Shown here piece after piece: positions 49,302-61,339 of a stretch of 64,000 bases of DNA. This DNA comes from Escherichia coli. GTDB taxonomy: Bacteria > Pseudomonadota > Gammaproteobacteria > Enterobacterales > Enterobacteriaceae. The translations under genes and the position numbers were made by a program. The stretch lies in NCBI RefSeq assembly GCF_030013595.1, contig NZ_CP122768.1. One strand, 5' to 3'. The stretch's first letter is position 1. The number at the start of each line of letters is the position of its first letter. Under the pieces are notes generated by a model. The model worked only from the letters and a program-made list of their open reading frames with translations, was not told the DNA's origin and searched no databases.

Positions 49302-49577
49302 ATCAGCCTCCTTTTGCTTAATTAGATATATCTAATTTATGTCTAATATGAGCGCTTTTGCAAGTATAAAAATGATTTTTAAACGTGAATACACCTCACA
49401 TCCAGGCCGGATAATTCGTTCACGCCGTATCCAACAGCCTTGCTACGACGCTGAATGTCTTCTCATACTTCAGATATATCAGTTCTACAAATCGCTTGCA
49501 TTTATCATGATTAACAATCATTATCATTTGCGAAATTTATTTAGATATATCTGATTACTATCACGAAGGCGATAACA
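49302..49577. promoter_or_regulatory. yqjI/yqjH divergent control region with Fur box and paired TTAGATATATCTAA palindromes
   Basis: Palindromes at 49321-49336 and 49540-49554. Fur-box-like TCATGATTAACAATCATTATCATTT at about 49503-49530. Confidence 0.55.
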
Positions 49578-50342
49578 ATGAATAACTCCCCCCGCTACCC
49601 GCAGCGCGTTCGCAATGATCTGCGCTTCCGTGAATTGACTGTGCTACGCGCTGAGCGTATTAGCGCCGGTTTTCAGCGCATTGTCCTTGGCGGCGAGGCG
49701 CTGGACGGTTTTACATCGCGCGGCTTTGACGATCACAGCAAACTCTTCTTTCCTCAATCTGATGCTCACTTTGTGCCGCCAACGGTAACGGAAGAGGGCA
49801 TCGTCTGGCCGGAAGGACCACGCCCACCGTCGCGTGACTATACGCCGCTGTATGACGAACTACGCCATGAACTGGCGATTGATTTCTTTATTCACGACGG
49901 TGGCGTCGCCAGCGGCTGGGCGATGCAGGCGCAACCGGGCGATAAACTCACGGTGGCAGGTCCGCGCGGTTCGCTGGTGGTGCCAGAGGATTACGCGTAT
50001 CAGCTGTATGTCTGCGATGAATCCGGAATGCCCGCACTGCGCCGCCGCCTGGAAACGTTGAGCAAACTTGCCGTTAAACCGCAAGTTAGCGCGCTGGTTA
50101 GCGTGCGGGATAACGCCTGTCAGGATTATCTCGCGCACCTTGATGGTTTTAATATCGAATGGCTGGCACATGATGAGCAGGCAGTAGATGCGCGTCTGGC
50201 GCAGATGCAAATCCCTGCCGATGATTACTTCATCTGGATAACCGGCGAAGGCAAAGTCGTTAAGAATTTAAGCCGCCGCTTTGAAGCGGAACAGTATGAT
50301 CCACAGCGGGTACGTGCAGCGGCTTACTGGCACGCAAAGTAA
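49578..50342 (+). CDS. yqjH: NADPH-dependent ferric-siderophore reductase YqjH (NfeF)
   Basis: 254-aa ORF of the siderophore-interacting FAD-binding family. Confidence 0.85.
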   Translation: MNNSPRYPQRVRNDLRFRELTVLRAERISAGFQRIVLGGEALDGFTSRGFDDHSKLFFPQSDAHFVPPTVTEEGIVWPEGPRPPSRDYTPLYDELRHELAIDFFIHDGGVASGWAMQAQPGDKLTVAGPRGSLVVPEDYAYQLYVCDESGMPALRRRLETLSKLAVKPQVSALVSVRDNACQDYLAHLDGFNIEWLAHDEQAVDARLAQMQIPADDYFIWITGEGKVVKNLSRRFEAEQYDPQRVRAAAYWHAK

Positions 50343-50916
50343 CTGATATATAAAAAGAAAAAGGCTGACGATTTCTCGTCAGCCTTTGCTATGTCTGGCC
50401 CTGCTGTCTCTTAATTGGTTGTGTAATTAATTGAAATTAAACAGGTAAATGCAATTTATTTTTTATCGATATGCCTTTTTGTATGCCTATTGGGAAAAAC
50501 ACGCTTTCTTCAACAGGGAATAAAAGCCGCTTTTATGGTGTTTTGAAACGGGTTTTAAAATGGCGCTCGTGGTGCTCTCGGGCACTCAATGGCGCTCTGT
50601 GATGTGGCTGGTGGTATGTGGCCGCCATGCATAATGGGGCTGATTTTGTTCATGGCCCGGCAGCGGGTGAGCATTTTTTACCATATTCAGGGTAAAAATG
50701 GGCGAAAAAGTTCATTTCTGGCATGGCCTGAAATGCCACGCAGCCCGCGCCGCGTGTGCTCTTGCCGGGGAAAACGGCGCGGAATAATGACCGCCACCCC
50801 ACCTTATGGCGGGCAGTCCCACGAAATCCCGGTTATTTCCGTTTATTCCCGGATTAATCCCGCCTTCTCCCGCATTCTCCCGGCTGTTCCCGGAATTAAT
50901 CGCCGTGGGGTGGTGG

Positions 50917-51207
50917 TTATCTGGTGTGGTCGTAGTTCTGCCGTAGTCGTTCACCCTCAGCGCAATGACGCGGTTTTTTAACGCCGCTGGTAACGCAACG
51001 CGGGCAGGTCATGACGTGGCTGATATACGCATCACGGGCAGCCAGCCACGTCGCTGACGGGGCGCACATATCCGCCAGCGCCTGGCCGTTGCTGGTGGTG
51101 TTGTCTTCCGGCCATGTTTCGGGCTGGTGCGCTTCCGGTAAATCCGGTGCAGGTAATGCCCGGATAAACTCACACAATGCATCCGGCAGGCTGAATAACT
51201 TATGCAT
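50917..51207 (-). CDS. Hypothetical 96-aa island protein with C-terminal Cys/His motif (CPRC...HC)
   Basis: ORF at the int-distal end of the island. A possible zinc-ribbon motif is present. The identification is weak. Confidence 0.4.
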   Translation of the reverse strand: MHKLFSLPDALCEFIRALPAPDLPEAHQPETWPEDNTTSNGQALADMCAPSATWLAARDAYISHVMTCPRCVTSGVKKPRHCAEGERLRQNYDHTR

Positions 51208-51630
51208 AAATCTGATGTTCTGAATCGCTGAAAACGTGCGTTTTATGGCGTTTTTTCGTGATTTCTGCGTGTTCTGATGTGCTCATTTCGCTGTATCCCT
51301 TGTGTGGCGCGGGCTGCGCGTGTGTTTCGGTGTTCTTTTTTACCGCCAGAAAACGGTAATCAGGCATATAAACACGGCTGTAAGCCGCGCCGCGTCTGGC
51401 TTCGCGTGATTTTGTGCGTCAAAAAGTGCATTTTTGCCCTTAAAAAGCGTTATTCGTAATTCACTGGTAAATGCTCCGCAGGCCGCGCCATTGCTGGCCT
51501 TTTCGCTATTCTGTGTGGTTTTGCTGTTTAACCCGTTTTGCACACTAAAATTGCCTTGCATCCCGCGCCACGTAAGGGATTGCCGGGTTTTTATGTTGCG
51601 TTTTTTGCCGTGCGTAATATTGTGCAAGTT

Positions 51631-51880
51631 GGTGGGACTGGTGGGAACTGTGGGAACCGCCTAGAACCACGCGGCTTTCAGTGGTTCCCACCAGTTCCCA
51701 CGTTGGCTTTTTGTGGGAACCGTGGCGGTTATTTTTTGTTCTTTGCGGTTCCCACCAGTTCCCGCAGAGTTCCCACTCAAAAACGAACAATAATCATACT
51801 GATGGTTTTATTATTTACTGATTTATATATGTTTTATTTTTACGGTTCCCACAGTTCCCACCAGTCCCACCACTTTTTCA
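51631..51880. repeat. Iteron array (GTTCCCAC/GTGGGAAC octamers, at least 12 copies in both orientations) flanking an AT-rich segment
   Basis: Repeats such as GGTGGGAACTGTGGGAACC, GTGGTTCCCACCAGTTCCCAC and ACGGTTCCCACAGTTCCCACCAGTCCCACC. An approximately 85% AT block lies at 51781-51842. The array is immediately downstream of the helicase gene. Confidence 0.6.
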
Positions 51881-51906
51881 GTTTTTAAAAACGCAATTTT
51901 TGTGAA

Positions 51907-53745
51907 TTATTCATCAATTGCGAATAACAATGCATTCTGGCCGATGGCGTAAACGCGGTGTTTCTCCCCGTTAACGGAAACGCGTTTTGTGTATCGGCGT
52001 TTCCCGTCCGTGTCGCGGTCAACAATCGCGCCAGCATCGTCAAGACTGGCCGCTATGCGTTTCAGGTCGTAGCCGCTGGCCGCCTCACATAGTGCTTCCG
52101 GTAAAAACCAGTAAACCCGCTCGCCGTTGCTCCCCGGTCGCCACCATCCGGCGCGGGTGCTTACTGGTTCGCTGTATGTGCTGCCCCCTTCAAAGCGTGA
52201 AGCATGGCGGGCGATAAACCCCGCGACGGCCCGGAGTATTTTCACGTCCTCCGATTGCCCCCGCCCACGATAGTCCGCCCACGCATCAAACATCGCTTTC
52301 ACTGCCTCCAGTGCTTCGCCCTGTTTCCACGGCAGAATCCCGGCAGTTATCGCCATTTCCCCGGCCAGTGCGCACAGTGTGAAACGCGCGGCGGCGCGTG
52401 CCTCCTGTCCGGTGCTTACGGGGAATTGTTCGCGCAGTATGGCGTACATATCCGCCAGCGTCTGGCCGTTGCTGTCGGTGCTGGTGGTGTCACTTTCATT
52501 GCGGGAAATCAGCCAGCGCACAAACTCCGGCCCGGCGTGGCCGTAATGGGTAGCCGCATTACCGCGCAGTGTTTCGGCAAATTTCCGGCCTGCTCCCCGG
52601 CGTTCTGTGTCGTTGTCGGGGTTGTGGGGTAGTGCCATTCCGTGAAGACAGTCAAATGCCCCGTAAAGCCGCTGTGCCGGAATATCCAGTAACCGCATTT
52701 CCTGCCCGGCCTTGATGCGCTGGCCGCCGCTTTCCATGTGTTTACCCACGGTCATTTCCCCGGTGGAAATAATCATGGTGCGCCATGTGTTGACCGGGCG
52801 GGCCATGCCGGACACCTTGCCACGCTGACGGCCTGTTCCGTTGCCAAGCTGATAAATCAGCCCGCCAATATCTCTGGCCGGGGCTTCGCCAATTTCATCC
52901 AGTATCAGCGCGGTATCGTTCCGCATGGTTGCCAGCCCTTCAAGCCCGGTGCTGGTGGCGTTCCAGTTGCGTTTAAAGTTGCGGGGTTCTCCCCATACGC
53001 TACAGGCCACCAGCGCCCCCACGCTTTTCCCGCTGGAACTGTCGCCCATGAAATGAAATCCGCCGCTGTCCACATCAAGCAACCACAGCAACGGCCCGGC
53101 GAGCGATGCACACACGGCCAGCATGGTTACCGGGTTTCCCCGGCATAATGCGGCCACGTTGTCGCGCCAGCCCTCCGGCGTTCCTGCGGTGGCGTACTCC
53201 TGTGAGCCTGCTTCTGTTGACTGAAACACCACATCACCATCACCGATAACCCCGCCCGGCATGACAAACAGGGCCGGGGAGTGCCACCCGGTGGCCGTGG
53301 CCGCGAGCGCCCGGCGTTTTGGTGCTGACTCCATGATGTATTCAGTCAGTGCCTGCCGTTGTTTGTAGGGAATGGTAACGCCCATGCGTAGCAGTTCCTG
53401 CCGGAGTTCTCCGCCGTCTCCGGCGAGCATTTCCATCGGTGCGGCCCATTCCCGCCACTGGCCTGACGGCGTGAGAAAACGGAGTAATCGCCCGTAGTTT
53501 TCGTCTTTGCTGTCGCTGGTCATGGCGATGACCTCCAGCGGGGAACATATAAACGTGTCTGTGTTGGTTGAGTCGCGCACGCCGTGCCAGTAAAGGCCGG
53601 GTTTCAGTATCTGGCCGCCGTCCACCTGTACATGCTGCGAATAAGTGGCGTAGCCCGGACGCGCCGGGCTGACTTTGGGGTGTTTCTTGCGTGGTGGTTT
53701 TCTCTTCCCGGATGTGACCGGGGTTTTAGTGGTTGTCCGGGTCAT
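51907..53745 (-). CDS. Replicative helicase-like protein (DUF927/P4-alpha C-terminal-like, Walker A GDSSSGKS)
   Basis: 612-aa ORF with P-loop GDSSSGKS and an ILDEIGE Walker B-like motif. It resembles phage/plasmid primase-helicase C-terminal regions. Confidence 0.75.
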   Translation of the reverse strand: MTRTTTKTPVTSGKRKPPRKKHPKVSPARPGYATYSQHVQVDGGQILKPGLYWHGVRDSTNTDTFICSPLEVIAMTSDSKDENYGRLLRFLTPSGQWREWAAPMEMLAGDGGELRQELLRMGVTIPYKQRQALTEYIMESAPKRRALAATATGWHSPALFVMPGGVIGDGDVVFQSTEAGSQEYATAGTPEGWRDNVAALCRGNPVTMLAVCASLAGPLLWLLDVDSGGFHFMGDSSSGKSVGALVACSVWGEPRNFKRNWNATSTGLEGLATMRNDTALILDEIGEAPARDIGGLIYQLGNGTGRQRGKVSGMARPVNTWRTMIISTGEMTVGKHMESGGQRIKAGQEMRLLDIPAQRLYGAFDCLHGMALPHNPDNDTERRGAGRKFAETLRGNAATHYGHAGPEFVRWLISRNESDTTSTDSNGQTLADMYAILREQFPVSTGQEARAAARFTLCALAGEMAITAGILPWKQGEALEAVKAMFDAWADYRGRGQSEDVKILRAVAGFIARHASRFEGGSTYSEPVSTRAGWWRPGSNGERVYWFLPEALCEAASGYDLKRIAASLDDAGAIVDRDTDGKRRYTKRVSVNGEKHRVYAIGQNALLFAIDE

Positions 53746-54769
53746 GCTCCATTTCCCATAGCATCAAATCGTTAAAGTCGGAAAGGTCTGGTGATGCACC
53801 GGGCGGCCATTCCGGGAATGTGACGTAACACCCGGCCAGCAATGCGGCTTCGTTGGCTGCTCTGGAACCGGGGTTATCTTTTGATGCCCGGTCATCATCC
53901 CCGGCGATAACGAGAGATATGCGCGAGCCGTATCGCTCACGCAGCGCCATAGCCACATGTTTAAGGTTTCCCGCATTCATGGCACACACCACGGCCATGA
54001 CGTTCCAGTACTGGAGAAGGGCGGCCCCGGTGGCCCACCCCTCACACACGTAAACGTCATGTTCCGGCGCTTCCGGGGCCATCAGGTCAAAGCTCCCCAT
54101 AACATGGAAAGCCCCCTGCACCTGACCATCACGGAGAAACATTTTTCGACCGTCCGGGCTGATAATCTGCACGTTCACCACTTCGCCGCATACGTTGTAC
54201 AGCGGGACAAGCAAATCATTACCTGACTGATACAGATTGCCGGGCTGTAGCCGTTTTTTCATGAGATAGGGATGAGAAGGGTTTGCCACCTCCGCCCGGC
54301 CAAGCAACTCAAAGGCCCGGCAGGCGGTCAGTTTCTGGCGCTGGTGGCGCTGTTGCTGTTCCCGCTGGCGGAGTCTGGCCGCCTCCTGTTCTGCGGCCTG
54401 TACCCGCACCCGTTGCGCCTCCCGTTGTTCGCGGGTCATTACATCAGGTTTGCCCAGCGCGGGCAGGCACAGCCCCAGCCTGTCCGCCACAATACGGGCG
54501 GCATCAGTCTGCCGCACATTCCATAAATAAGCCCCCAGCGCCACAAGGTCGCCGCCGCTGTCCCCGGTGGCGAAGTCGTGCCAGCATCCGTCCACCAGCG
54601 AGACGGAAAAACTGCCCGCGTGACGGTCTGCACGCGTGGGGTTACGACACACCCATTCAGTGGCCTGCCGTTTACCTTCGGGCAGCCATTCGGGAACAAG
54701 GATTTCTGCATGTTGTGCCGCCACTGCGGCAACGCTACGGATTGCGTTAATCGTGGCTATGTCACGCAT
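53726..54769 (-). CDS. Toprim-domain DNA primase (P4-alpha N-terminal-like), separate ORF
   Basis: Cys/His cluster CRNPTRADRHAGSFSVSLVDGCWHDF and toprim DVYVCEGWATGAAL...VIAGDDD. The likely start MRDIATINAI is at 54769 (track ORF starts at 54919). It overlaps the helicase ORF by 20 nt. Confidence 0.7.
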   Translation of the reverse strand: MRDIATINAIRSVAAVAAQHAEILVPEWLPEGKRQATEWVCRNPTRADRHAGSFSVSLVDGCWHDFATGDSGGDLVALGAYLWNVRQTDAARIVADRLGLCLPALGKPDVMTREQREAQRVRVQAAEQEAARLRQREQQQRHQRQKLTACRAFELLGRAEVANPSHPYLMKKRLQPGNLYQSGNDLLVPLYNVCGEVVNVQIISPDGRKMFLRDGQVQGAFHVMGSFDLMAPEAPEHDVYVCEGWATGAALLQYWNVMAVVCAMNAGNLKHVAMALRERYGSRISLVIAGDDDRASKDNPGSRAANEAALLAGCYVTFPEWPPGASPDLSDFNDLMLWEMEHDPDNH

Positions 54770-55076
54770 GTTGCCCGTCCTCCCTGATTTCCCCGGTGCG
54801 GCAGCGCCAGTTATACGCCTCCACAACCTCACTGAATCCGGCCACAAGTTCAGCCGTAACAGCGATGGAATCGCCCAGGCTGCGTAGTTCATTTGGACCA
54901 AGAGCATTATTGTCGCCAATTACCGAAAGTAGCCGCCCTGTGCCAGCCAGCGCATCAAGCAGTTTGCGGGCGCAGTAATCCGCATCATCAAACATTGCGC
55001 GGGCTTCCTGTGCGTCTGCGTTTTTGATGGCCGCAACCAGTAGTTCAGGTATCCGGGTGTTATACATATCACGCAT
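54762..55076 (-). CDS. Hypothetical 104-aa island protein
   Basis: ORF co-oriented and tightly packed between the Icd-like/hypothetical genes and the primase. No recognisable motif. Confidence 0.5.
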   Translation of the reverse strand: MRDMYNTRIPELLVAAIKNADAQEARAMFDDADYCARKLLDALAGTGRLLSVIGDNNALGPNELRSLGDSIAVTAELVAGFSEVVEAYNWRCRTGEIREDGQHA

Positions 55077-55365
55077 GGCTTACCTCCCCGGCCTGCTGGT
55101 CGTAACACTCCATCAGTTCGGCCATACAGCCAATGAGGGCAGGGGCTGTCTGTAGAAATCCGGCTAACTGGCAGATCTCGTCTCTGGAATAGGTGATGGG
55201 GTTTTCGCGTAACTGGCTTTCCTCCAGTGCCTTACCAACAAAGGCAATCCCCGCAAGTAAATTCACTCTGTGCCAGTCTGCATCAACGCGCAGACTCCAG
55301 CGGCTTTCTTCGTCCGGCATACTGCTCATGGCGGCTTTCATTGACTCACGCAGACAATCACGCAT
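55069..55365 (-). CDS. Hypothetical about 98-aa island protein
   Basis: ORF from MRDCLRESMKAAMSS. Upstream part of the track ORF is probably not translated. Confidence 0.45.
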   Translation of the reverse strand: MRDCLRESMKAAMSSMPDEESRWSLRVDADWHRVNLLAGIAFVGKALEESQLRENPITYSRDEICQLAGFLQTAPALIGCMAELMECYDQQAGEVSHA

Positions 55366-55558
55366 GACGCACCCCCTGAGCCGGAACGCGGCCAGCAAAC
55401 AGCAACACAAAATCACGCGCCAGCATACGGCGGGCGGTTGTTTCATCGGGTGCGTTGACGGATTCGCGGTGTGGGCGGTCGTTCAGGTCGGAACGGCGAA
55501 CAGCCAGAAAGTGAAAGGTAAATTCAGGGTGTAACGGGGTTGGGGTCGTAGCCATTCT
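55358..55558 (-). CDS. Icd-like small protein (P4 host cell-division inhibitor family)
   Basis: 66-aa ORF MATTPTPLHPEFTFHFLAVRRSDLNDRPHRESVNAPDETTARRMLARDFVLLFAGR preceded by AGGAGG. It is embedded in a longer, probably spurious 201-aa track ORF. Confidence 0.6.
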   Translation of the reverse strand, partial: RMATTPTPLHPEFTFHFLAVRRSDLNDRPHRESVNAPDETTARRMLARDFVLLFAGRVPAQGVRHA

Positions 55559-55741
55559 GGCAGCCTCCTTTTGCAAATTTAAGGAGTCACCGCCTGAGTT
55601 CCTACACTCATAAGGGGCGGTGACGCTGGCAGGGGTAGGAATACCGGCGCAAAAGGAAACCGGCCAGCCTTTCGGCTGCCCCACCAGCGCCACCATAGAT
55701 ACAGTGCGGGTCTTGCCGCTGTGCATGGGTGCGCGATGGCA

Positions 55742-55776
55742 CGACACAAAAAAAGACGCTGGGCGCGTCTGTGTCG
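55742..55776 (-). terminator. Rho-independent terminator downstream of alpA
   Basis: Stem GACGCGCCCAGCGTC followed by a U7 run on the minus strand. Confidence 0.5.
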
Positions 55777-55981
55777 CCTTTTGCTCATTAAACGGGTTCC
55801 TACGCCCGGCTGGTGGATTTACACCAGCGGGGGAAATATAACGCCCACCAGCGATGGCAGGCAAGCAATATTTGCGGTTGCCGCCCATCCCGTGGGGCGT
55901 GTGGTGGTTGTTTTGGGCGTGAGAACGCCCCGGCCCTGTTACGGGCCTTTCTGGCATTTTCATAATGATTATCGCGGTTGG

Positions 55982-56236
55982 TTAGTGGCTGGTGGGTTCT
56001 TTGTTTTTTTGCGCTCTGGCGATAATTTCTGCCATTACGTTATTGCGTTCCTCCACGCGGGCCGCAAGCCATGCATTAACTTCGGATTCAAACCATCCAA
56101 CGCGGCGCAGCCCGCGACGAAAGCCGGGGATAAATTCGCCAGCCCGAATCATGTCGTCAATGCTGGTAGTGGAACGAAGGCGCAGACGCGCAGCAACCTC
56201 GCGTTTGGTGAGGATTTTATCTTGTGTGGTGTCCAT
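55982..56236 (-). CDS. alpA: AlpA-family phage transcriptional regulator / excisionase-like
   Basis: 84 aa MDTTQDKILTKREVAARLRLRSTTSIDDMIRAGEFIPGFRRG...VGWFESEVNAWL. Confidence 0.75.
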   Translation of the reverse strand: MDTTQDKILTKREVAARLRLRSTTSIDDMIRAGEFIPGFRRGLRRVGWFESEVNAWLAARVEERNNVMAEIIARAQKNKEPTSH

Positions 56237-56369
56237 GATATTTCGCCTCTTAATTGTATTAATTGGCCCTAACTGGCCATAACAATATGGAAGCACAAGA
56301 AGGCGTGAAATTGCCGGACATGTCCATCAGATGGCTGACATGTCCGGCGTATACTCATTCGTGAATTGA

Positions 56370-57248
56370 CTAATCAACCTTAAACCAGCGTCGCATGGTT
56401 TTTTGTGAGGGCAGAGATAAACCAGCTTTGCAAAAATCGTTTTCTAATTCTGTTGGCTGGCCCTTGGTTTTGTCTTCTCTTACATGAAGCCATGGTTTGC
56501 CTCGCTTCGTTTCATCCTTGTAATACAGATAAAGCAAATCATCCACAAAAGCAGGCAGTGCGCTTCTTGGGTCTGGTTGTGTCGTCGGTGATGGTAGTTT
56601 TTTGGTTATGCACCCCATTAACATCCCGTTAGCGCAATCTCTCCCGCCATCCTTAAGGATTTCGATTTCTTCGGCGGTAATAAACAGGTCATCAATGCTT
56701 ACATCGAGTGGACTGGAATCAAAAGTAATCATCGGGCTGAGGGAATAATCGTCACCGTCAGTGTTCATTGTCCTTGGCTTTCCAAGAGAAAAACGAGCCG
56801 ATGACTTTCCATATTTTACAAAATCATAAAAAGGCATGGATTTGGTCAGGTTGCATATGGACATTAACCCTTCTATGGTCAAGTACCTGTATCCCATTAA
56901 AGGTATTTGGTTTTTCGGAATACCTCTGGGACGTTCTTCACTGATAAACAGAATTGCTGTTGTGACTTCAAAATCTCCCGCGCTATATGGTGTATAGACG
57001 GTAAATGGTAGCTGACACAGTGAATCGCCAAGCGGTTTAAATAAAACATACTTATCAGTTGATTTAGTTTCATAATGGTTAAACAGGTCAATTTCAGCCC
57101 GCCACCTTCCTGATATATGTGTACAAATCTCCAGCATTCCTATGTCAGCAAAATGAAGCAAATCATCAACACTGCACTTATTGGAGTTTGCAGTCAGATA
57201 ACTGGCCGCATCGCGTAGTGAGTAAAACAATCTTTTAGGTAATGCCAT
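56370..57248 (-). CDS. Hypothetical 292-aa orphan protein (AT-rich cargo gene between int and alpA)
   Basis: ORF with its likely ATG at 57248, immediately after the integrase stop. Coding DNA is visibly more AT-rich than the rest of the island. No recognisable domain. Confidence 0.6.
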   Translation of the reverse strand: MALPKRLFYSLRDAASYLTANSNKCSVDDLLHFADIGMLEICTHISGRWRAEIDLFNHYETKSTDKYVLFKPLGDSLCQLPFTVYTPYSAGDFEVTTAILFISEERPRGIPKNQIPLMGYRYLTIEGLMSICNLTKSMPFYDFVKYGKSSARFSLGKPRTMNTDGDDYSLSPMITFDSSPLDVSIDDLFITAEEIEILKDGGRDCANGMLMGCITKKLPSPTTQPDPRSALPAFVDDLLYLYYKDETKRGKPWLHVREDKTKGQPTELENDFCKAGLSLPSQKTMRRWFKVD

Positions 57249-57249
57249 A

Positions 57250-58524
57250 TTATTCACCAACCACTTTTAAGCCACGAAAACCGCCAGTTGCACTAAGGCT
57301 TCCGGTTGCTGCCTGTTCGATAAAATCACCCCACCACGCCATCAGTGGGCGGCGTTGCTCCAGATATGTGGAGCGATTGTAAGCCCGTCTCACCGTGTCC
57401 TTATCCAGATGGGAAAGCGCAGCCTCTATTACATCTGGCGGGAACCCCTGTTCATTAAGCGCCGTACTTGCTACAGAGCGTAAACCATGCGCCACCAGCT
57501 TTCCGGTATACCCCATGCGCCTGATAGCGGCGTTTGCGGTCTGTTGATGCATCCCACGCATGGGGTCGCTGTTATGTGGAAAAACAAACTTTCGATGCCC
57601 GCTGATTGGGCGCATGGCTTCAAGAATGGCCATTGCCTGATTATTCAGGGGGACAATGTGCTCCCTTCGTTGTTTTAGTCGCCCGGCTGATATACGCCAC
57701 ACTCTGGCATCTGCATCTATCTCGCTCCACTGTGCCCCGGCTGCCTCGCATGGGCGGCAAATAGTTAATAATTGCCATTCAATAACAAGACGCGTTTGAA
57801 GTTCTGCGCGAGCCGTTGCCAGTTTTTGCATAAATTCCGGCAACTCATCAGGCCTGATTGTTGGCATGTGTTTAACTACAGGTGGGTTGAATGCCTTGCT
57901 GATTTGAGCGGCGGGATTAGCTGGAATTAATCCAATATTCACTGCGTAATACATAACCTCATTGATTCTTTGTGCCAGCCGTCGCACCGTATCCGCTTTG
58001 CCCTGTGCTGATACAGGTTTCAGGGCTTCGATAAAATCCCGTGCAACCAGTTCTGTGATTGGGCGATGGCCTATGGGTGGCAGCACATGACGCTCAAGAG
58101 AACGCCATATATCACGGAGTGTATTTGCCGCCAGATTCTGGCCGCGCTTTACTTCAAACCATTCTTCGGCCACGCGCTGAAATGTGTTTAATCGCCGTAT
58201 TTCATCATCCCGGCGTTGTTTTTCCCTGTGTTCTTTGGGGTCAGTTCCATTTGCGACCAGTGAGCGATACTCGTCTTTAATCCTGCGAGCATCGGCAATG
58301 CTGATTTCGGGATATGCACCAAGGCTTAACATTGCCCGTTTTTTGGTGTGTGGCTTGTAGTACCGGAACCGCCATAAGGCTGATGCGCTACCCGCTTTCA
58401 CAACTAACTCCAGCCCATCGCCATCCGTGATAAATAAATCCTTCTCGGCGGTGAGCGATTTCTTCTGCAAACTTTTAATCGTCGCTGGTGTAAGTAATTT
58501 TGTGTTTTTGGCCACTGGTTGCAT
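57250..58524 (-). CDS. int: Tyrosine recombinase, P4-type integrase
   Basis: 424-aa ORF with an N-terminal arm-binding region and a catalytic region ending HGLRSVASTALNEQGFPPDVIEAALSHLDKDTVRRAYNRSTY. It lies adjacent to a tRNA gene. Confidence 0.9.
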   Translation of the reverse strand: MQPVAKNTKLLTPATIKSLQKKSLTAEKDLFITDGDGLELVVKAGSASALWRFRYYKPHTKKRAMLSLGAYPEISIADARRIKDEYRSLVANGTDPKEHREKQRRDDEIRRLNTFQRVAEEWFEVKRGQNLAANTLRDIWRSLERHVLPPIGHRPITELVARDFIEALKPVSAQGKADTVRRLAQRINEVMYYAVNIGLIPANPAAQISKAFNPPVVKHMPTIRPDELPEFMQKLATARAELQTRLVIEWQLLTICRPCEAAGAQWSEIDADARVWRISAGRLKQRREHIVPLNNQAMAILEAMRPISGHRKFVFPHNSDPMRGMHQQTANAAIRRMGYTGKLVAHGLRSVASTALNEQGFPPDVIEAALSHLDKDTVRRAYNRSTYLEQRRPLMAWWGDFIEQAATGSLSATGGFRGLKVVGE

Positions 58525-58632
58525 CCCGAAACAGGTTTAAGGCATACGAGATTGCTTCTGTTTGTGAGGATATGCCTTGATGTATGCCTAAAGAATCTGG
58601 CTTATACCTTAGCAAACTGGCCAAAACTGGAC

Positions 58633-58668
58633 AATAAAAAACCCGCAAGCCTTGTGTGGCGCGGGTTT
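58633..58668 (-). terminator. Rho-independent terminator downstream of ileX
   Basis: Stem ACCCGCGCCACACAAGGCTTGCGGGT followed by UUUUUUAUU on the minus strand. Confidence 0.5.
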
Positions 58669-58712
58669 CGTCTGATTAACTGGCCGTATCTGATACTAAC
58701 CGAATGTCAATT

Positions 58713-58788
58713 TGGTGGCCCCTGCTGGACTTGAACCAGCGACCAAGCGATTATGAGTCGCCTGCTCTAACCACTGAGCTAAGGGGCC
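58713..58788 (-). tRNA. ileX: tRNA-Ile2 (anticodon CAU, lysidine type; ileX-like)
   Basis: 76-nt cloverleaf GGCCCCTTAGCTCAGTGGTTAGAGCAGGCGACTCATAATCGCTTGGTCGCTGGTTCAAGTCCAGCAGGGGCCACCA with anticodon CAT and encoded CCA. Context is mug/rpoD. Confidence 0.9.
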
Positions 58789-58912
58789 ATGGTAGCGGAT
58801 TATAAAGTAACTCCGTGTCGCAATCCAGCCATTACCGCGCGCCTGCTGTTTTTATAAACAATGTATTTTCAATCCGTTATACTTTTCCTGGTGATGTTAG
58901 AAAGGAGTAAAT

Positions 58913-59419
58913 ATGGTTGAGGATATTTTGGCTCCAGGGTTACGGGTCGTGTTTTGCGGTATCAACCCTGGGCTTTCATCTGCCGGGACTGGTTTTCCCT
59001 TTGCTCATCCGGCAAATCGCTTCTGGAAGGTGATATATCAGGCCGGGTTTACCGACCGTCAGTTGAAGCCGCAGGAGTCACAGCATCTGCTGGATTATCG
59101 TTGTGGCGTCACCAAACTGGTAGACCGTCCAACGGTGCAAGCCAATGAAGTTTCAAAGCAAGAACTACACGCAGGCGGGCGTAAGCTGATTGAAAAAATT
59201 GAAGATTATCAGCCGCAGGCGTTGGCGATTCTGGGCAAACAAGCATATGAACAGGGATTCAGCCAGCGCGGTGCACAGTGGGGGAAACAAACGCTCACCA
59301 TTGGTTCGACGCAGATTTGGGTGCTGCCAAATCCCAGTGGTTTAAGTCGCGTTTCACTGGAGAAACTGGTTGAAGCGTATCGCGAGCTGGACCAGGCGCT
59401 GGTAGTGCGTGGGCGATAA
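58913..59419 (+). CDS. mug: G/U mismatch-specific DNA glycosylase Mug
   Basis: 168 aa [20 protein letters not shown]. Confidence 0.9.
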
Positions 59420-59448
59420 AAAACGCCACCGAAAAGGTGGCGTTTGTG
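59418..59448. terminator. Bidirectional terminator between convergent mug and rpoD
   Basis: A6-CGCCACCGAAAAGGTGGCG-TTT serves as hairpin plus U-run in both orientations. A REP-like unit follows at about 59455-59495. Confidence 0.6.
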
Positions 59449-59497
59449 CAGAGGGCCTAGTGCCGGGTGCGGCGTAACGCCTGATCCGGCCTACCGA

Positions 59498-61339
59498 TTA
59501 ATCGTCCAGGAAGCTACGCAGCACTTCAGAACGGCTCGGGTGACGCAGTTTGCGCAGCGCCTTCGCTTCGATCTGACGGATACGTTCGCGGGTAACGTCG
59601 AACTGTTTACCCACTTCTTCCAGCGTGTGGTCGGTGTTCATATCGATACCGAAGCGCATACGCAGAACTTTCGCTTCACGCGCGGTCAGGCCAGCCAGCA
59701 CGTCGTGCGTTGCCGCACGCAGGCTTTCGGTGGTCGCAGAATCCAGCGGCAGCTCGAGGGTGGTATCCTCGATGAAATCCCCCAGATGCGAATCTTCATC
59801 ATCACCGATCGGCGTTTCCATGGAGATTGGCTCTTTGGCGATCTTCAGCACTTTGCGGATCTTATCTTCCGGCATAAGCATACGTTCAGCCAGTTCTTCC
59901 GGCGTCGGCTCGCGGCCCATCTCTTGCAGCATCTGGCGAGAAATACGGTTGAGCTTGTTGATAGTCTCAATCATATGCACCGGAATTCGGATGGTGCGCG
60001 CCTGATCCGCGATAGAGCGGGTGATCGCCTGACGGATCCACCAGGTTGCGTAGGTGGAGAACTTGTAACCACGGCGGTATTCGAATTTATCAACCGCTTT
60101 CATCAGGCCGATGTTACCTTCCTGAATCAGGTCAAGGAACTGCAAGCCACGGTTGGTGTATTTCTTGGCGATAGAAATAACCAGACGTAAGTTCGCTTCA
60201 ACCATCTCTTTCTTCGCACGGCGGGCTTTCGCTTCACCGATGGACATACGACGGTTGATATCTTTAACCTGCTCGATGGTCAGGCCCGTTTCTTCTTCAA
60301 TCTGCTGCAGTTTCTGCAGGGCGCGATGCACTTCTTCAGAGACATCGTGCAGTTTTTCCGACCACGGCTTGTTCATCGCAATTGCCGCGTTGAACCAGGT
60401 ATCGCTGGTTTCGTTGCCGGTAAACAGGGTAATGAAGTTTTTCTTCGGCATTTTGCACTGCTCAACGCAGAGCTTCATGATCAGACGTTCTTGCGTACGA
60501 ACGCGGTCCATCATGACGCGCATGCTGTTGACCAGGTAGTCAAACTGCTTCGGCACCAGGCGGAACTGTTTGAATACTTCAGACAGTTTCAGGATCTCTT
60601 CCTGAGCGGCAGCGTGACTGCGACCTTTCGCTTTGATGGTGTCACGCGTTACAACGTACTGAGCGCGCAGTTCCGCAAATTTTTCACGAGCCAGTTCCGG
60701 GTCGATGCTGTTGTCATCATCGGCGCTGTCGTCATCGCCATCTTCTTCGTCTTCATCTTCGTCATCGTCCAGATCTTCCTGGGAAAGCTCAGAACCGACG
60801 TGAGTGGCGGTAGGTGCCAGATCTTCTTCTGCGTTCGGGTCAACAAAGCCGGTGATCAGATCGGACAGACGCGCTTCTTCTGCTTCAACACGATCGTACT
60901 GTTCCAGCAGATAGGTGATCGCTTCCGGATATTCAGCAACGGAGCATTGAACCTGGTTGATCCCGTCTTCAATACGCTTAGCGATGTCAATTTCGCCTTC
61001 GCGGGTCAACAGTTCAACGGTGCCCATTTCACGCATGTACATGCGTACCGGGTCAGTCGTGCGCCCGATTTCAGATTCCACGCTGGAAAGCACCTGCGCG
61101 GCGGCTTCGGCAGCATCTTCGTCCGCGGTGTTTTCAGCCAGCATCAGATCATCGGCATCCGGTGCTTCTTCCATCACCTGAATGCCCATGTCGTTGATCA
61201 TTTGGATGATGTCTTCGATCTGATCTGAATCGACGATATCTTCCGGCAGATGGTCATTGACCTCGGCATAGGTCAGATAGCCTTGCTCCTTACCACGGGT
61301 GACAAGAAGTTTCAGCTGTGACTGCGGGTTTTGCTCCAT
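59498..61339 (-). CDS. rpoD: RNA polymerase sigma-70 RpoD
   Basis: 613-aa ORF with the acidic region 1.1/NCR and conserved regions 2-4. Confidence 0.97.

Follow-up and report, generated by a model that had tools for sequence, protein, structure and literature searches.

The 64,000-nt stretch of Escherichia coli DNA analysed here (the window; contig NZ_CP122768.1 of assembly GCF_030013595.1) carries, between nfeF (yqjH) and mug, a block of co-oriented genes that an earlier note, made from the sequence alone, had taken for a discrete integrative element related to P4 and to phage-inducible chromosomal islands (PICIs) and inserted at the tRNA-Ile2 gene ileX. Alignment of both junctions with an empty site (L001), a comparison proposed in that note, delimited an insertion of 8,306 bp at 50407-58712 and yielded its exact ends together with a direct repeat. 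ARAGORN detected a single tRNA in the window, on the minus strand and with anticodon CAT, which we identify as ileX because the same gene in identical loci carries the RefSeq label tRNA-Ile. All open reading frames (ORFs) of the element lie on the minus strand, and the Prokaryotic Genome Annotation Pipeline (PGAP) assigns nine coding sequences (CDS) and an 'ash' pseudogene to identical copies. ORF strands, PGAP and family searches agree on the nine genes that the note had listed: a P4-type tyrosine integrase beside the tRNA, an orphan gene, alpA, an Icd-like gene, two small genes of unknown function, a toprim primase, a DUF927-like helicase and an ORF with a Cys motif (Table 1). They agree equally with its statement that capsid, packaging and sid/psu/delta genes are lacking, as blastp, tblastn, a pattern search, Pfam and PHROGs all returned nothing of the kind. 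Base composition along the element is mosaic, with a GC content of about 0.40-0.44 across the 292-aa orphan gene and of about 0.60 across the replication genes.

The distribution of the insertion in the species was surveyed by megablast with positions 49500-59500 as query against 5,426 complete E. coli genomes. The query matched 5,425 of them, with a coverage of at least 80% in just 14; in the remaining genomes, among the matches listed, only the flanks were found, with nfeF, tRNA-Ile and mug adjacent. The ileX site is unoccupied in more than 99% of the 5,426 genomes and the full island is present in 14, so that 50407-58712 stands out as a discrete insertion, present in some strains and missing in others, with a direct repeat, degenerate in sequence, at its ends. 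The earlier note would have taken the lack of an end repeat, or identical content at this locus in all E. coli, as the sign of an ancient fixed remnant; a direct repeat is present and nearly all E. coli have nothing inserted here, so neither sign applies.

Table 1 Features of the ileX insertion and its flanks, in window coordinates
Feature	Position	Strand	Evidence or remark
nfeF/yqjH	49578-50342	+	Left flank
attL core, degenerate copy of ileX 3' end (TGGCCCTGCTG)	50396-50406		Empty-site and attR alignment; 4 nt shorter than tRNA
Two putative tandem arm-type sites (GATATGCCTT / TGTATGCCTA), 12-nt spacing	50468-50489	+	62-83 nt from core
Helically phased CGGGA-type repeats, 10-11 nt spacing	50822-50896	-	Six to eight repeats
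96-aa Cys-containing ORF	50917-51207	-	No family in four libraries
Candidate replication origin, inverted iteron blocks and internal iterons	51630-51872		AT-rich segment ~51777-51843
DUF927 helicase/initiator	51907-53745	-	PF06048 8e-83; NCBIfam SCCmec Cch1 3e-21
Toprim-type primase	53726-54769	-	Toprim_3; phrog_2249 DNA primase 4e-50; start per PGAP on identical copies
Small ORF, 104 aa	54762-55076	-	No family; 68% identical homologue in Tenebrionibacter element L013
Small ORF, 98 aa	55069-55365	-	No family; missing in UMNF18 and STEC308 copies
Icd-like leader ORF, 65 aa	55358-55555	-	NF033153 7e-20; C-terminal part of 201-aa frame
Ash/eta-like frame, 201 aa	55358-55963	-	Phage_ASH 3.6e-26, residues 42-148; phrog_6928 profile positions 41-202 of 202
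Targets a2 (GTAGGAA, 55599-55605) and b2 (GCAAAAGGA, 55566-55574)	55566-55605	-	Complementary to C4 RNA
C4/CI-type antisense RNA	55613-55700	-	Rfam RF01695 79.6 bits (gathering 45), full length
Leader with a1 (55797-55803), b1 (55777-55784) and isrK-type terminator hairpin (55754-55770)	55749-55841	-	
Sigma-70-like promoter TTGCCT-18-TATATT	55835-55864	-	Consensus match only
AlpA/Vis-type helix-turn-helix protein, 84 aa	55982-56236	-	phrog_66 2e-12; 41% identity to P4 ORF88/Vis, E = 2e-14
292-aa integrase-contiguous gene ('orphan')	56370-57248	-	No family in Pfam, PHROGs, NCBIfam, PADLOC
P4-type tyrosine integrase	57250-58524	-	NF007246 521 bits; Arm-DNA-bind_3, Phage_int_M, Phage_integrase domains
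Putative integrase-side arm-type sites: one inverted and two tandem direct, 12-nt spacing	58538-58590		TATGCCT motif
attR core, intact tRNA 3' end (TGGTGGCCCCTGCTG)	58713-58727	-	Alignment with empty site
ileX = tRNA-Ile2, CAT anticodon	58713-58788	-	ARAGORN; attR core is its 3' end at 58713-58727
mug	58913-59419	+	Right flank
rpoD	59498-61339	-	Right flank

The degenerate copy of the tRNA 3' end that the note had placed near 50390-50410 was found there, TGGCCCTGCTG matching TGGTGGCCCCTGCTG. Further inside, both ends of the element carry a motif that we regard as a putative integrase-binding, or arm-type, site. The direct pair on the integrase side (58569-58590, 123-144 nt from the core) and the far-end pair are identical at 20 of 22 positions, and five of the 11 occurrences of TATGCCT in the 64 kb fall within these sites, at 50470, 50482, 58571, 58583 and, inverted, at 58540 (58540-58546, minus strand). 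The motifs shared between the ends were thus correctly noticed in the note, and only its left coordinates were off, the copy lying at 50468-50489. In an element of 78% identity on metagenome contig L009, which comes from another enterobacterial species, CGTATGCCTTTTTGTATGCCTA is retained at an equal distance from the far end, with the DNA between core and motif not alignable, and motifs of a related kind are also found on the integrase side. Homology to sibling elements that have a different integrase stops just inside the arm motif, at 50494-50512. Because the motif is kept in L009 and sibling homology breaks at this place, the assignment as arm-type sites, made from sequence, is well supported.

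The attR core is invariant among the copies compared, and the attL alleles, read at the matching junction in the window and in L002, L004, L006, L007, L008, L039 and L040, form a nested series, each followed by CCCTGCTG|TCTC: TGGTGG in copies SA31-1 and cq9, TGGTG in STEC308, TGG in the window, ETEC1716 and P13-6, and TG in UMNF18 and HCP5S3_I2. Copies of the element that match at about 100% can still differ in attL length (at least four variants, with 1-5-nt deletions): two substitutions and one gap in 8.3 kb separate the cq9 element from that of the window, and yet cq9 has the full-length attL allele. Every attL copy, that of L009 from another species included, reads CCC where the tRNA has CCCC, a pattern that fits an attP core one base unlike attB and strand exchange within the TGGTGG(C) part. 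The deletions would then affect the place where crossover probably occurs and might hinder the window copy from excising; slippage in TGGTGG or abortive cleavage by the integrase are possible causes. The junction predicted for attP, in an excised circle or a tandem copy, is …GAATGTCAATT-TGGTGGCCC(C)TGCTG-TCTCTTAATTGG…. An A/G difference 4 nt from attL, considered as a junction-associated mutation, was rejected since it belongs to a flank haplotype that another strain shares.

Directly after the tRNA 3' end, on the minus strand at 58637-58670, there is a GC-rich hairpin followed by a T-run (AAACCCGCGCC…GGCTTGCGGGTTTTTTATTG). The automatic minus-strand scan did not list it, and a hairpin of similar kind is found at the equivalent place in L009. 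It probably stands in for the ileX terminator, displaced by 8.3 kb to 50360-50387 upon integration.

The integrase aligns over 393 aa with Int of P4 (35% identity, E = 1e-81), and the catalytic motifs R, HxxR and Y fall in register. The 84-aa protein encoded two genes downstream, matched by P4 Vis and phrog_66 though its scores for Pfam AlpA and HTH_17 remain below cut-off, is a putative excision and transcription factor. In the sibling elements L003 (13816-13881) and L013 (5450-5515), the Rfam family RF02996 'int-alpA RNA' was detected just downstream of int with 63-64 bits; the element of the window has no RF02996 there because the 292-aa gene follows directly after int.

This 292-aa gene, which the note had listed as an orphan in an element with cargo, indeed has no family in any library, but 'cargo' is not an apt description, since the gene is conserved and contiguous with the integrase gene (TAA-T-ATG junction). 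Its product is predicted to consist of a MerR/Xis-type winged helix-turn-helix (HTH), a beta-rich domain and a helical C-terminus. A word-indexed search of 5.8 billion proteins returned only three clusters with 81-100% identity, and in both of the two that were checked (L009, L010) the gene sits right after the same integrase. An exhaustive HMMER search with an alignment of these homologues extended the family to about 35 remote representatives of 260-300 aa, with shared motifs at the N-terminus (LPxRLYYxLxxAA…C.V.DLLHFA.IG), a central PR, DLxITxxELELLKNGG and a helical C-terminal part. The two remote members that could be placed, each 29% identical to the window protein, adjoin a P4-type integrase gene; behind each come an HTH gene (about 82 aa), a Bro-N or Ash gene, and then those for toprim and DUF927, and one of the two members is located at rpoD-mug-ileX. 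Pfam assigned no family to any of the 35 members, PADLOC gave no match for any ORF of the element, and the family profile did not significantly match the 317-aa gene found at the equivalent place in a dinD-yicC sibling element (E = 0.09, with a hint in the N-terminal HTH only). The 'orphan' therefore appears to be a conserved integrase-coupled gene and not cargo. Because its position, its coupling to int and its co-variation with the integrase parallel those of iolg/icg in phage-inducible chromosomal minimalist islands (abbreviated PICMIs), we read it, by analogy, as a probable integrase-associated DNA-binding cofactor or regulator.

Downstream of alpA lies what appears to be a complete P1/P4-type C4/isrK antisense-RNA immunity unit containing the Icd-like ORF. 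The note had recognised the Icd-like gene, which NF033153 bears out, and had overlooked the C4/isrK unit that precedes it. Besides the full-length C4 match, the leader at 55749-55828 matches the isrK-type family RF01394 with 60.7 bits (gathering score 50), and a c4-a1b1 match of 38.6 bits stays under its gathering score. The unpaired segments of the C4 RNA, UUCCUAC and CCUUUUGC, are complementary to GTAGGAA/GCAAAAGG upstream (a1/b1) and to GTAGGAA/GCAAAAGGA downstream (a2/b2); the combination GTAGGAA-N(10-30)-GCAAAAGG occurs exactly twice in the window and not once in 100 shuffles. Target b2 runs into AAGGAGG-N7-ATG, the ribosome-binding site (RBS) and start of the Icd-like ORF at 55555 (sequence GCAAAAGGAGGCTGCCAGAATG). 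A T-run hairpin closes the isrK-like leader, and the promoter-like sequence lies just upstream of the leader. The unit is kept in the relatives L003, L009 and L043.

Over its last 113 aa, at the C-terminus, the Ash/Icd frame shares 52% identity with the P4 'cI/ash' ORF, and the DNA of the P4 cI region is 70% identical. PGAP treats the 201-aa frame inconsistently, either as one CDS or as a pseudogene plus an Icd-like CDS in frame, and translation of its upstream Ash part is uncertain. A blastn search (word size 11) with 50407-56400 against 50,697 phage records found matches only in the immunity region, namely to P4 cI (70%), to the P1-like D6 and RCS47 and to the N15-like phiKO2. The immI region of P1 (c4-icd-ant) and P4 cI follow the same antisense-RNA logic. 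The P4 cI case has been described alongside C4/isrK matches in gram-negative PICIs (PMC10111431).

The replication module follows the small ORFs. Resemblance of the toprim protein to P4 alpha is restricted to 117 aa (34% identity), and the DUF927 protein has no significant similarity to alpha. Its structure matches were two Protein Data Bank entries, 5dgk, named 'Active helicase' (1e-17), and 8tch, named 'Pathogenicity island protein' (1e-12), so that the DUF927 protein is related to the Rep helicase of Staphylococcus aureus pathogenicity islands (SaPIs) and to the Cch helicases of the staphylococcal cassette chromosome mec (SCCmec), a relationship that had escaped the earlier note. The iteron- and AT-rich origin proposed there was recovered as well: nine of the 20 matches to RGTTCCCAC in the whole window are clustered in 51641-51861, flanking an AT-rich stretch just past the DUF927 stop codon, and the blocks at 51630-51659 and 51843-51872 form a 30-nt inverted repeat of 100% complementarity. 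Both iteron blocks are 100% conserved in L009 against about 77% in the surrounding DNA, which argues strongly for constraint on these blocks of the candidate origin downstream of the DUF927 gene. In SaPIs, primase, rep and a downstream iteron origin are arranged in the same way. The succession of primase, Rep-like helicase and downstream iteron origin is also the arrangement of gram-negative PICIs (PMC10111431).

The two small ORFs and the Cys-motif ORF listed in the note are present and match no family. The 98-aa ORF is dispensable, because the UMNF18 and STEC308 copies are without it. Homologues of the 96-aa Cys-containing ORF in Enterobacteriaceae are all named 'hypothetical', and a 41-aa stretch of it is still found downstream of DUF927 genes in Pseudomonas. 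An Ogr/Delta-type zinc-finger activator was considered for this ORF and found no support, as no Pfam match was obtained. Over 43 nt, 51061-51103 in this ORF and 52441-52483 in the DUF927 gene are 88% identical (peptides NTTSNGQALADMCAP and STDSNGQTLADMYAI), and the same pairing is found in sibling elements; it may reflect a partial duplication or gene conversion between small ORF and helicase. Beyond the 96-aa ORF, the far end of the window copy consists of non-coding DNA only. These roughly 420 nt (50494-50916) are conserved among siblings and include the densest cluster of CGGGA in the 64-kb window, six in 90 nt. Shorter phased arrays occur at the equivalent place in L012, L013 and L009, and the CGGGA repeats and the origin iterons have a common GGGA(A/C) core. 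The array is a candidate for a second Rep-binding site, crr-like by position in P4 terms, or for a packaging site. At the far end of L005 (5486-6743) and L009 (15949-16458) there are additional genes for Mor-family and PerC-family activators and an ssb fragment, and a tRNA-Tyr is annotated in L005.

The element has relatives at another site in the chromosome. In about 17 E. coli genomes, 50494/50523-55966 is present at 96-98% identity within an element located between dinD and yicC that has a different integrase (30% identical), a different gene of 317 aa and a different AlpA; some sibling elements have an AntA/AntB gene after the Icd-like position. At ileX, the elements of the window and of ETEC1716 (L002) differ by one substitution in 8,306 nt and their left flanks by three in 260 nt, and elements up to 2.8% diverged lie in identical flanks. 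This discordance between element and flank points to repeated acquisition and not to one ancient fixed insertion. The 78%-identical element of L009 also lies at ileX-mug, next to a tRNA that differs in its T-arm.

A wider scan, with one genome per species, uncovered DUF927 relatives at 26 loci, among them loci of E. albertii, Tenebrionibacter, Pseudomonas/Ectopseudomonas, Burkholderiales and Methylobacillus. In most of the loci with sufficient flank, a toprim gene lies immediately upstream in the same orientation and a P4-type integrase gene 3-5 kb upstream; neither is seen in a few of the most distant ones. The conserved part of the 96-aa ORF persists downstream in several. No match to P4 sid, delta, psu or epsilon was found in the 26 loci. 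As the same compact layout recurs without late genes in Enterobacteriaceae, Pseudomonas and Burkholderiales, the missing late module appears to be a property of the family and not the outcome of decay in the window copy, and the note's description of the element as 'reduced' is not supported. In most of the loci L014-L018, L021, L046 and L047 (not in L017), the compact element is succeeded by a second, distantly related tyrosine recombinase gene of like orientation. In loci that possess the motif resembling the 96-aa ORF, this gene lies about 0.2-1.3 kb downstream of it, and its presence suggests tandem islands at the same tRNA cluster in Pseudomonas/Ectopseudomonas. The record PP003922.1 (L038, 'Pseudomonas phage vB_Pae_U10', 10,183 bp), submitted as the genome of a phage, contains int, excisionase-like genes, a toprim primase and a DUF927-type 'primase', after which come genes for a major capsid protein of the P2 GpN type and for an exonuclease. 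It may represent a satellite-like island that belongs to this replication family and either includes a capsid gene or borders on one.

Further variation was noted around and within the ileX copies. The strains that carry the island are mostly porcine enterotoxigenic E. coli (ETEC). An IS4 copy lies between mug and rpoD in ETEC1716 (L002) and UMNF18 (L008) and not in the window. The element is interrupted in ETEC4090, by aph(3')-Ia, and in ETEC1732/1734, by ISEc12 (IS21-like), so that the island is able to acquire resistance genes and insertion sequences. In E. coli HCP5S3_I2 (L041, NZ_CM149870.1 760400-800000), mug-rpoD is not what adjoins the element on the right; in its place stands an island of more than 39 kb, with another tyrosine recombinase gene at its start and with genes for raffinose/sucrose utilisation, a group II intron, a cluster of type I-like methyltransferase/helicase genes, Ag43 and yeeT. 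This arrangement suggests a rearrangement or a second island at ileX.

Considered together, 50407-58712 is probably a horizontally acquired integrative and replicative element of the P4/PICI lineage, composed of four modules. Its ends, its homologies, the complementarity of RNA and targets, the iterons and the patchy occurrence are established from sequence; its regulation, excision, replication and helper dependence, and the ability of the window copy to excise, are properties that we infer. The P4-type integrase would recombine a P4-like attP with the ileX 3' end, probably acting together with the product of the abutting 292-aa gene and the AlpA/Vis-type excision factor. A processed C4 RNA would pair with the a1/b1 and a2/b2 targets, and pairing at b2 would mask the Icd-like Shine-Dalgarno sequence, blocking translation and terminating transcription early. 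The genes for primase and helicase farther downstream would thereby stay unexpressed, in the manner of P1 immI and P4 cI. Upon derepression, the toprim primase and the DUF927 helicase would initiate replication at the iteron origin, and a small conserved tail, formed by the 96-aa ORF and the phased repeat array, would constitute the fourth module. As the element has no capsid, terminase or helper-manipulating genes, its transfer would need a helper, most plausibly a phage that packages the element as PICMI satellites are packaged.

Several observations weigh against this interpretation. No helper phage, cos or pac site was identified in searches of phage records and for the P2/P4 cos and lambda cosN sequences. 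The left non-coding region was unmatched in the 50,697 phage records, with no shared cos/pac, and the P2/P4 cos 19-mer, a cohesive end that is not among the components used by SatelliteFinder, was absent when up to three mismatches were allowed. Matches to the lambda cosN 12-mer were discarded, since they lie inside genes and are no more frequent than expected by chance; an 11/12 match within the primase gene (54546-54557, minus strand; CGGCGGCGACCT) is probably fortuitous. The predicted attP junction had no exact match in IMG/VR or in Joint Genome Institute (JGI) metagenome contigs, a search of low power because the element is rare, and the three IMG/VR contigs that hold relatives do so in a form uninformative on packaging. 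For every regulatory step the argument is one of analogy to P1 and P4, and the 84-aa HTH protein is below the Pfam cut-offs for AlpA and HTH_17. The attL core of the window is 4 nt short of the fullest relatives, and int is frameshifted in the otherwise identical cq9 copy; therefore some copies, possibly that of the window, may be immobile.

The truncated attL core and the cq9 frameshift would suit a larger P4-like or PICI satellite that, having lost its late or hijack module (sid-delta-psu-cos or capsid/terS), has decayed into an immobile, cryptic remnant, as would the lack of packaging and helper-manipulating genes, the non-coding DNA of about 420 nt between the 96-aa ORF and attL, and the Mor, PerC and ssb-fragment extras at the far end of some siblings. 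We nevertheless consider such decay unlikely, since all nine ORFs are intact, the compact layout recurs across several bacterial orders with no locus holding P4 late genes, near-identical copies occur in different backgrounds and diverged ones in identical flanks, and the iteron blocks are strongly conserved. It also seems improbable that the element is a self-replicating island independent of phage particles, spread in an SCCmec-like manner by conjugative mobilisation, transformation or generalised transduction. The kinship of the helicase with SCCmec Cch, the lack of a terminase or cos site and the lack of phage matches outside the immunity region are in line with that view, but Pfam, PHROGs and NCBIfam scans revealed no relaxase, coupling protein or recognisable oriT, and integrase, Vis/AlpA and C4 unit are phage or satellite hallmarks common to P4 and P1, in a gene order like that of PICIs (PMC10111431) and PICMIs (PMC10803314).

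The 292-aa gene invites the idea that the element serves chiefly to carry an accessory or anti-phage gene: it lies between int and alpA, where its GC content contrasts with that of the replication genes, it is without known family, and the P4 cargo genes gop, beta and cII adjoin int in the corresponding P4-like defence hotspot. We hold this to be very unlikely, as PADLOC found no match, the gene is contiguous with int, its close homologues and the two 29%-identical ones abut the same integrase type in related elements, its behaviour is that of a core integrase-coupled gene such as PICMI iolg (PMC10803314), and the predicted N-terminal fold is of the MerR/excisionase type. More speculative than the P4/PICI-lineage interpretation favoured here, and in our view doubtful, is the proposal that these elements form an undescribed family of minimal satellites in Enterobacteriaceae, with relatives in Pseudomonas, that would combine P4-type integration and antisense immunity with a SaPI-Rep-like helicase and no packaging genes. 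Their concatemers would be packaged in PICMI fashion by some helper, the int-contiguous gene would be an essential excision cofactor, and the deletions in attL TGGTGG would be scars of abortive cleavage that progressively lock copies in the chromosome.

An island of this kind is already known and common, and it is this copy that is newly resolved in detail. Because the compact layout recurs in relatives from Enterobacteriaceae to Pseudomonas, it appears to be a conserved design and not a product of decay. The element provides a fully parsed example of the Type C PICI class, with exact ends, P4-like att sites, an RNA immunity unit and an origin, and its module-swapped natural siblings at dinD-yicC add material for comparison. 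It could serve as a convenient E. coli model for the mobilisation of minimal islands by phages and for the role of iolg-type integrase-coupled genes. For the host strains it represents a small variable island, one copy of which contains aph(3')-Ia. The element is an ordinary, neatly organised member of a common, little-studied class of satellite-like islands and by itself changes current understanding little.

Direct comparison with the P4 genome (L011), at the level of proteins and of six-frame translations, revealed homologous integrase, Vis/AlpA and cI/'ash' immunity region with CI/C4 RNA, and the order vis, immunity, small ORFs, primase and att is the same. The attP of P4 likewise has a core formed by a tRNA end, two adjacent 12-nt arm repeats on each side of it and one inverted repeat at the start of int; the geometry is alike and the arm motif sequence different. 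These homologies and the att layout uphold the note's view of a P4/PICI-like integrative element bounded by attL and attR. In contrast to P4, where alpha is a primase-helicase, toprim and DUF927 proteins are encoded by separate genes, the iterons are unlike those of the P4 origin and the origin lies downstream of the helicase gene. Neither the protein nor the six-frame comparison gave any match to sid, delta, psu, epsilon, orf151, orf106, gop, beta or cII of P4.

SatelliteFinder requires at least five of seven core components for P4-like satellites and at least four of five for PICIs of types A and B (PMC10085698). The element has at most three of the seven P4-like components and three of the five PICI components, namely integrase, regulator and primase-replicase; capsid-morphogenesis and terS are lacking. 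Pfam and PHROGs gave no capsid, morphogenesis or terminase family for any ORF; the sole weak match, of phrog_57 (terS) with E = 0.003, was to the HTH of the AlpA-like protein, and the small ORFs had no terS-like match. With three of five components the element therefore falls into the 'Type C PICI' class, whose more than 6,000 elements, having int, alpA and primase alone, were set aside as unresolved in the most extensive census of satellites (PMC10085698).

Gram-negative PICIs of the EcCICFT073 type, for which four zones were defined by Tommasini, Mageeney and Williams (2023, PMC10111431), share with the element the unidirectional succession of integration, immunity and replication zones, with int and AlpA/HTH_17, a 'Bro'/immunity zone with C4/isrK, DUF927-type primases and a downstream origin, and tRNA-Ile2 is among their reported integration sites (PMC10111431). 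They differ in their late zone (capsid, terS, rpp and other captured late genes), which the element does not have, and the element has the 292-aa gene between int and alpA. Closer still in outline are the PICMIs of Vibrionaceae, described in PMC10803314 as having the layout int-iolg-alpA-prim, no capsid genes and a requirement of iolg for excision. They have in common with the element int, an int-overlapping or contiguous gene (iolg/icg), alpA, small ORFs, a primase gene and, ahead of att, a short tail, as well as a similar size class of 6-8 kb and the lack of capsid-remodelling or packaging genes. The likeness of the 292-aa gene to iolg is one of position and coupling to int. PICMIs have a DUF3987/DUF5906 primase where the element has Toprim_3 and DUF927, integrate at fis and not at ileX, and belong to another host family, and a C4 antisense-RNA unit is not among the PICMI features taken from that paper.

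The immunity unit has its counterpart in the immI region of P1/P7 (c4-icd-ant), with a C4 RNA, two flanking pairs of a/b targets and b2 placed over the RBS of the Icd-like ORF, but here the Icd-like ORF is followed by replication genes and not by an antirepressor. The replication module in turn resembles the pri-rep-ori of SaPIs and SCCmec Cch, as seen in the DUF927 matches to 8tch and 5dgk and in the primase before and the iterons with AT-rich segment after the helicase gene; the similarity is confined to the ATPase core, and regulation by AlpA and C4 is proteobacterial and not Stl-based. Judged by sequence and gene order, the element would thus work like an island of the P4/PICI/PICMI type while being a member of none of the currently defined families.

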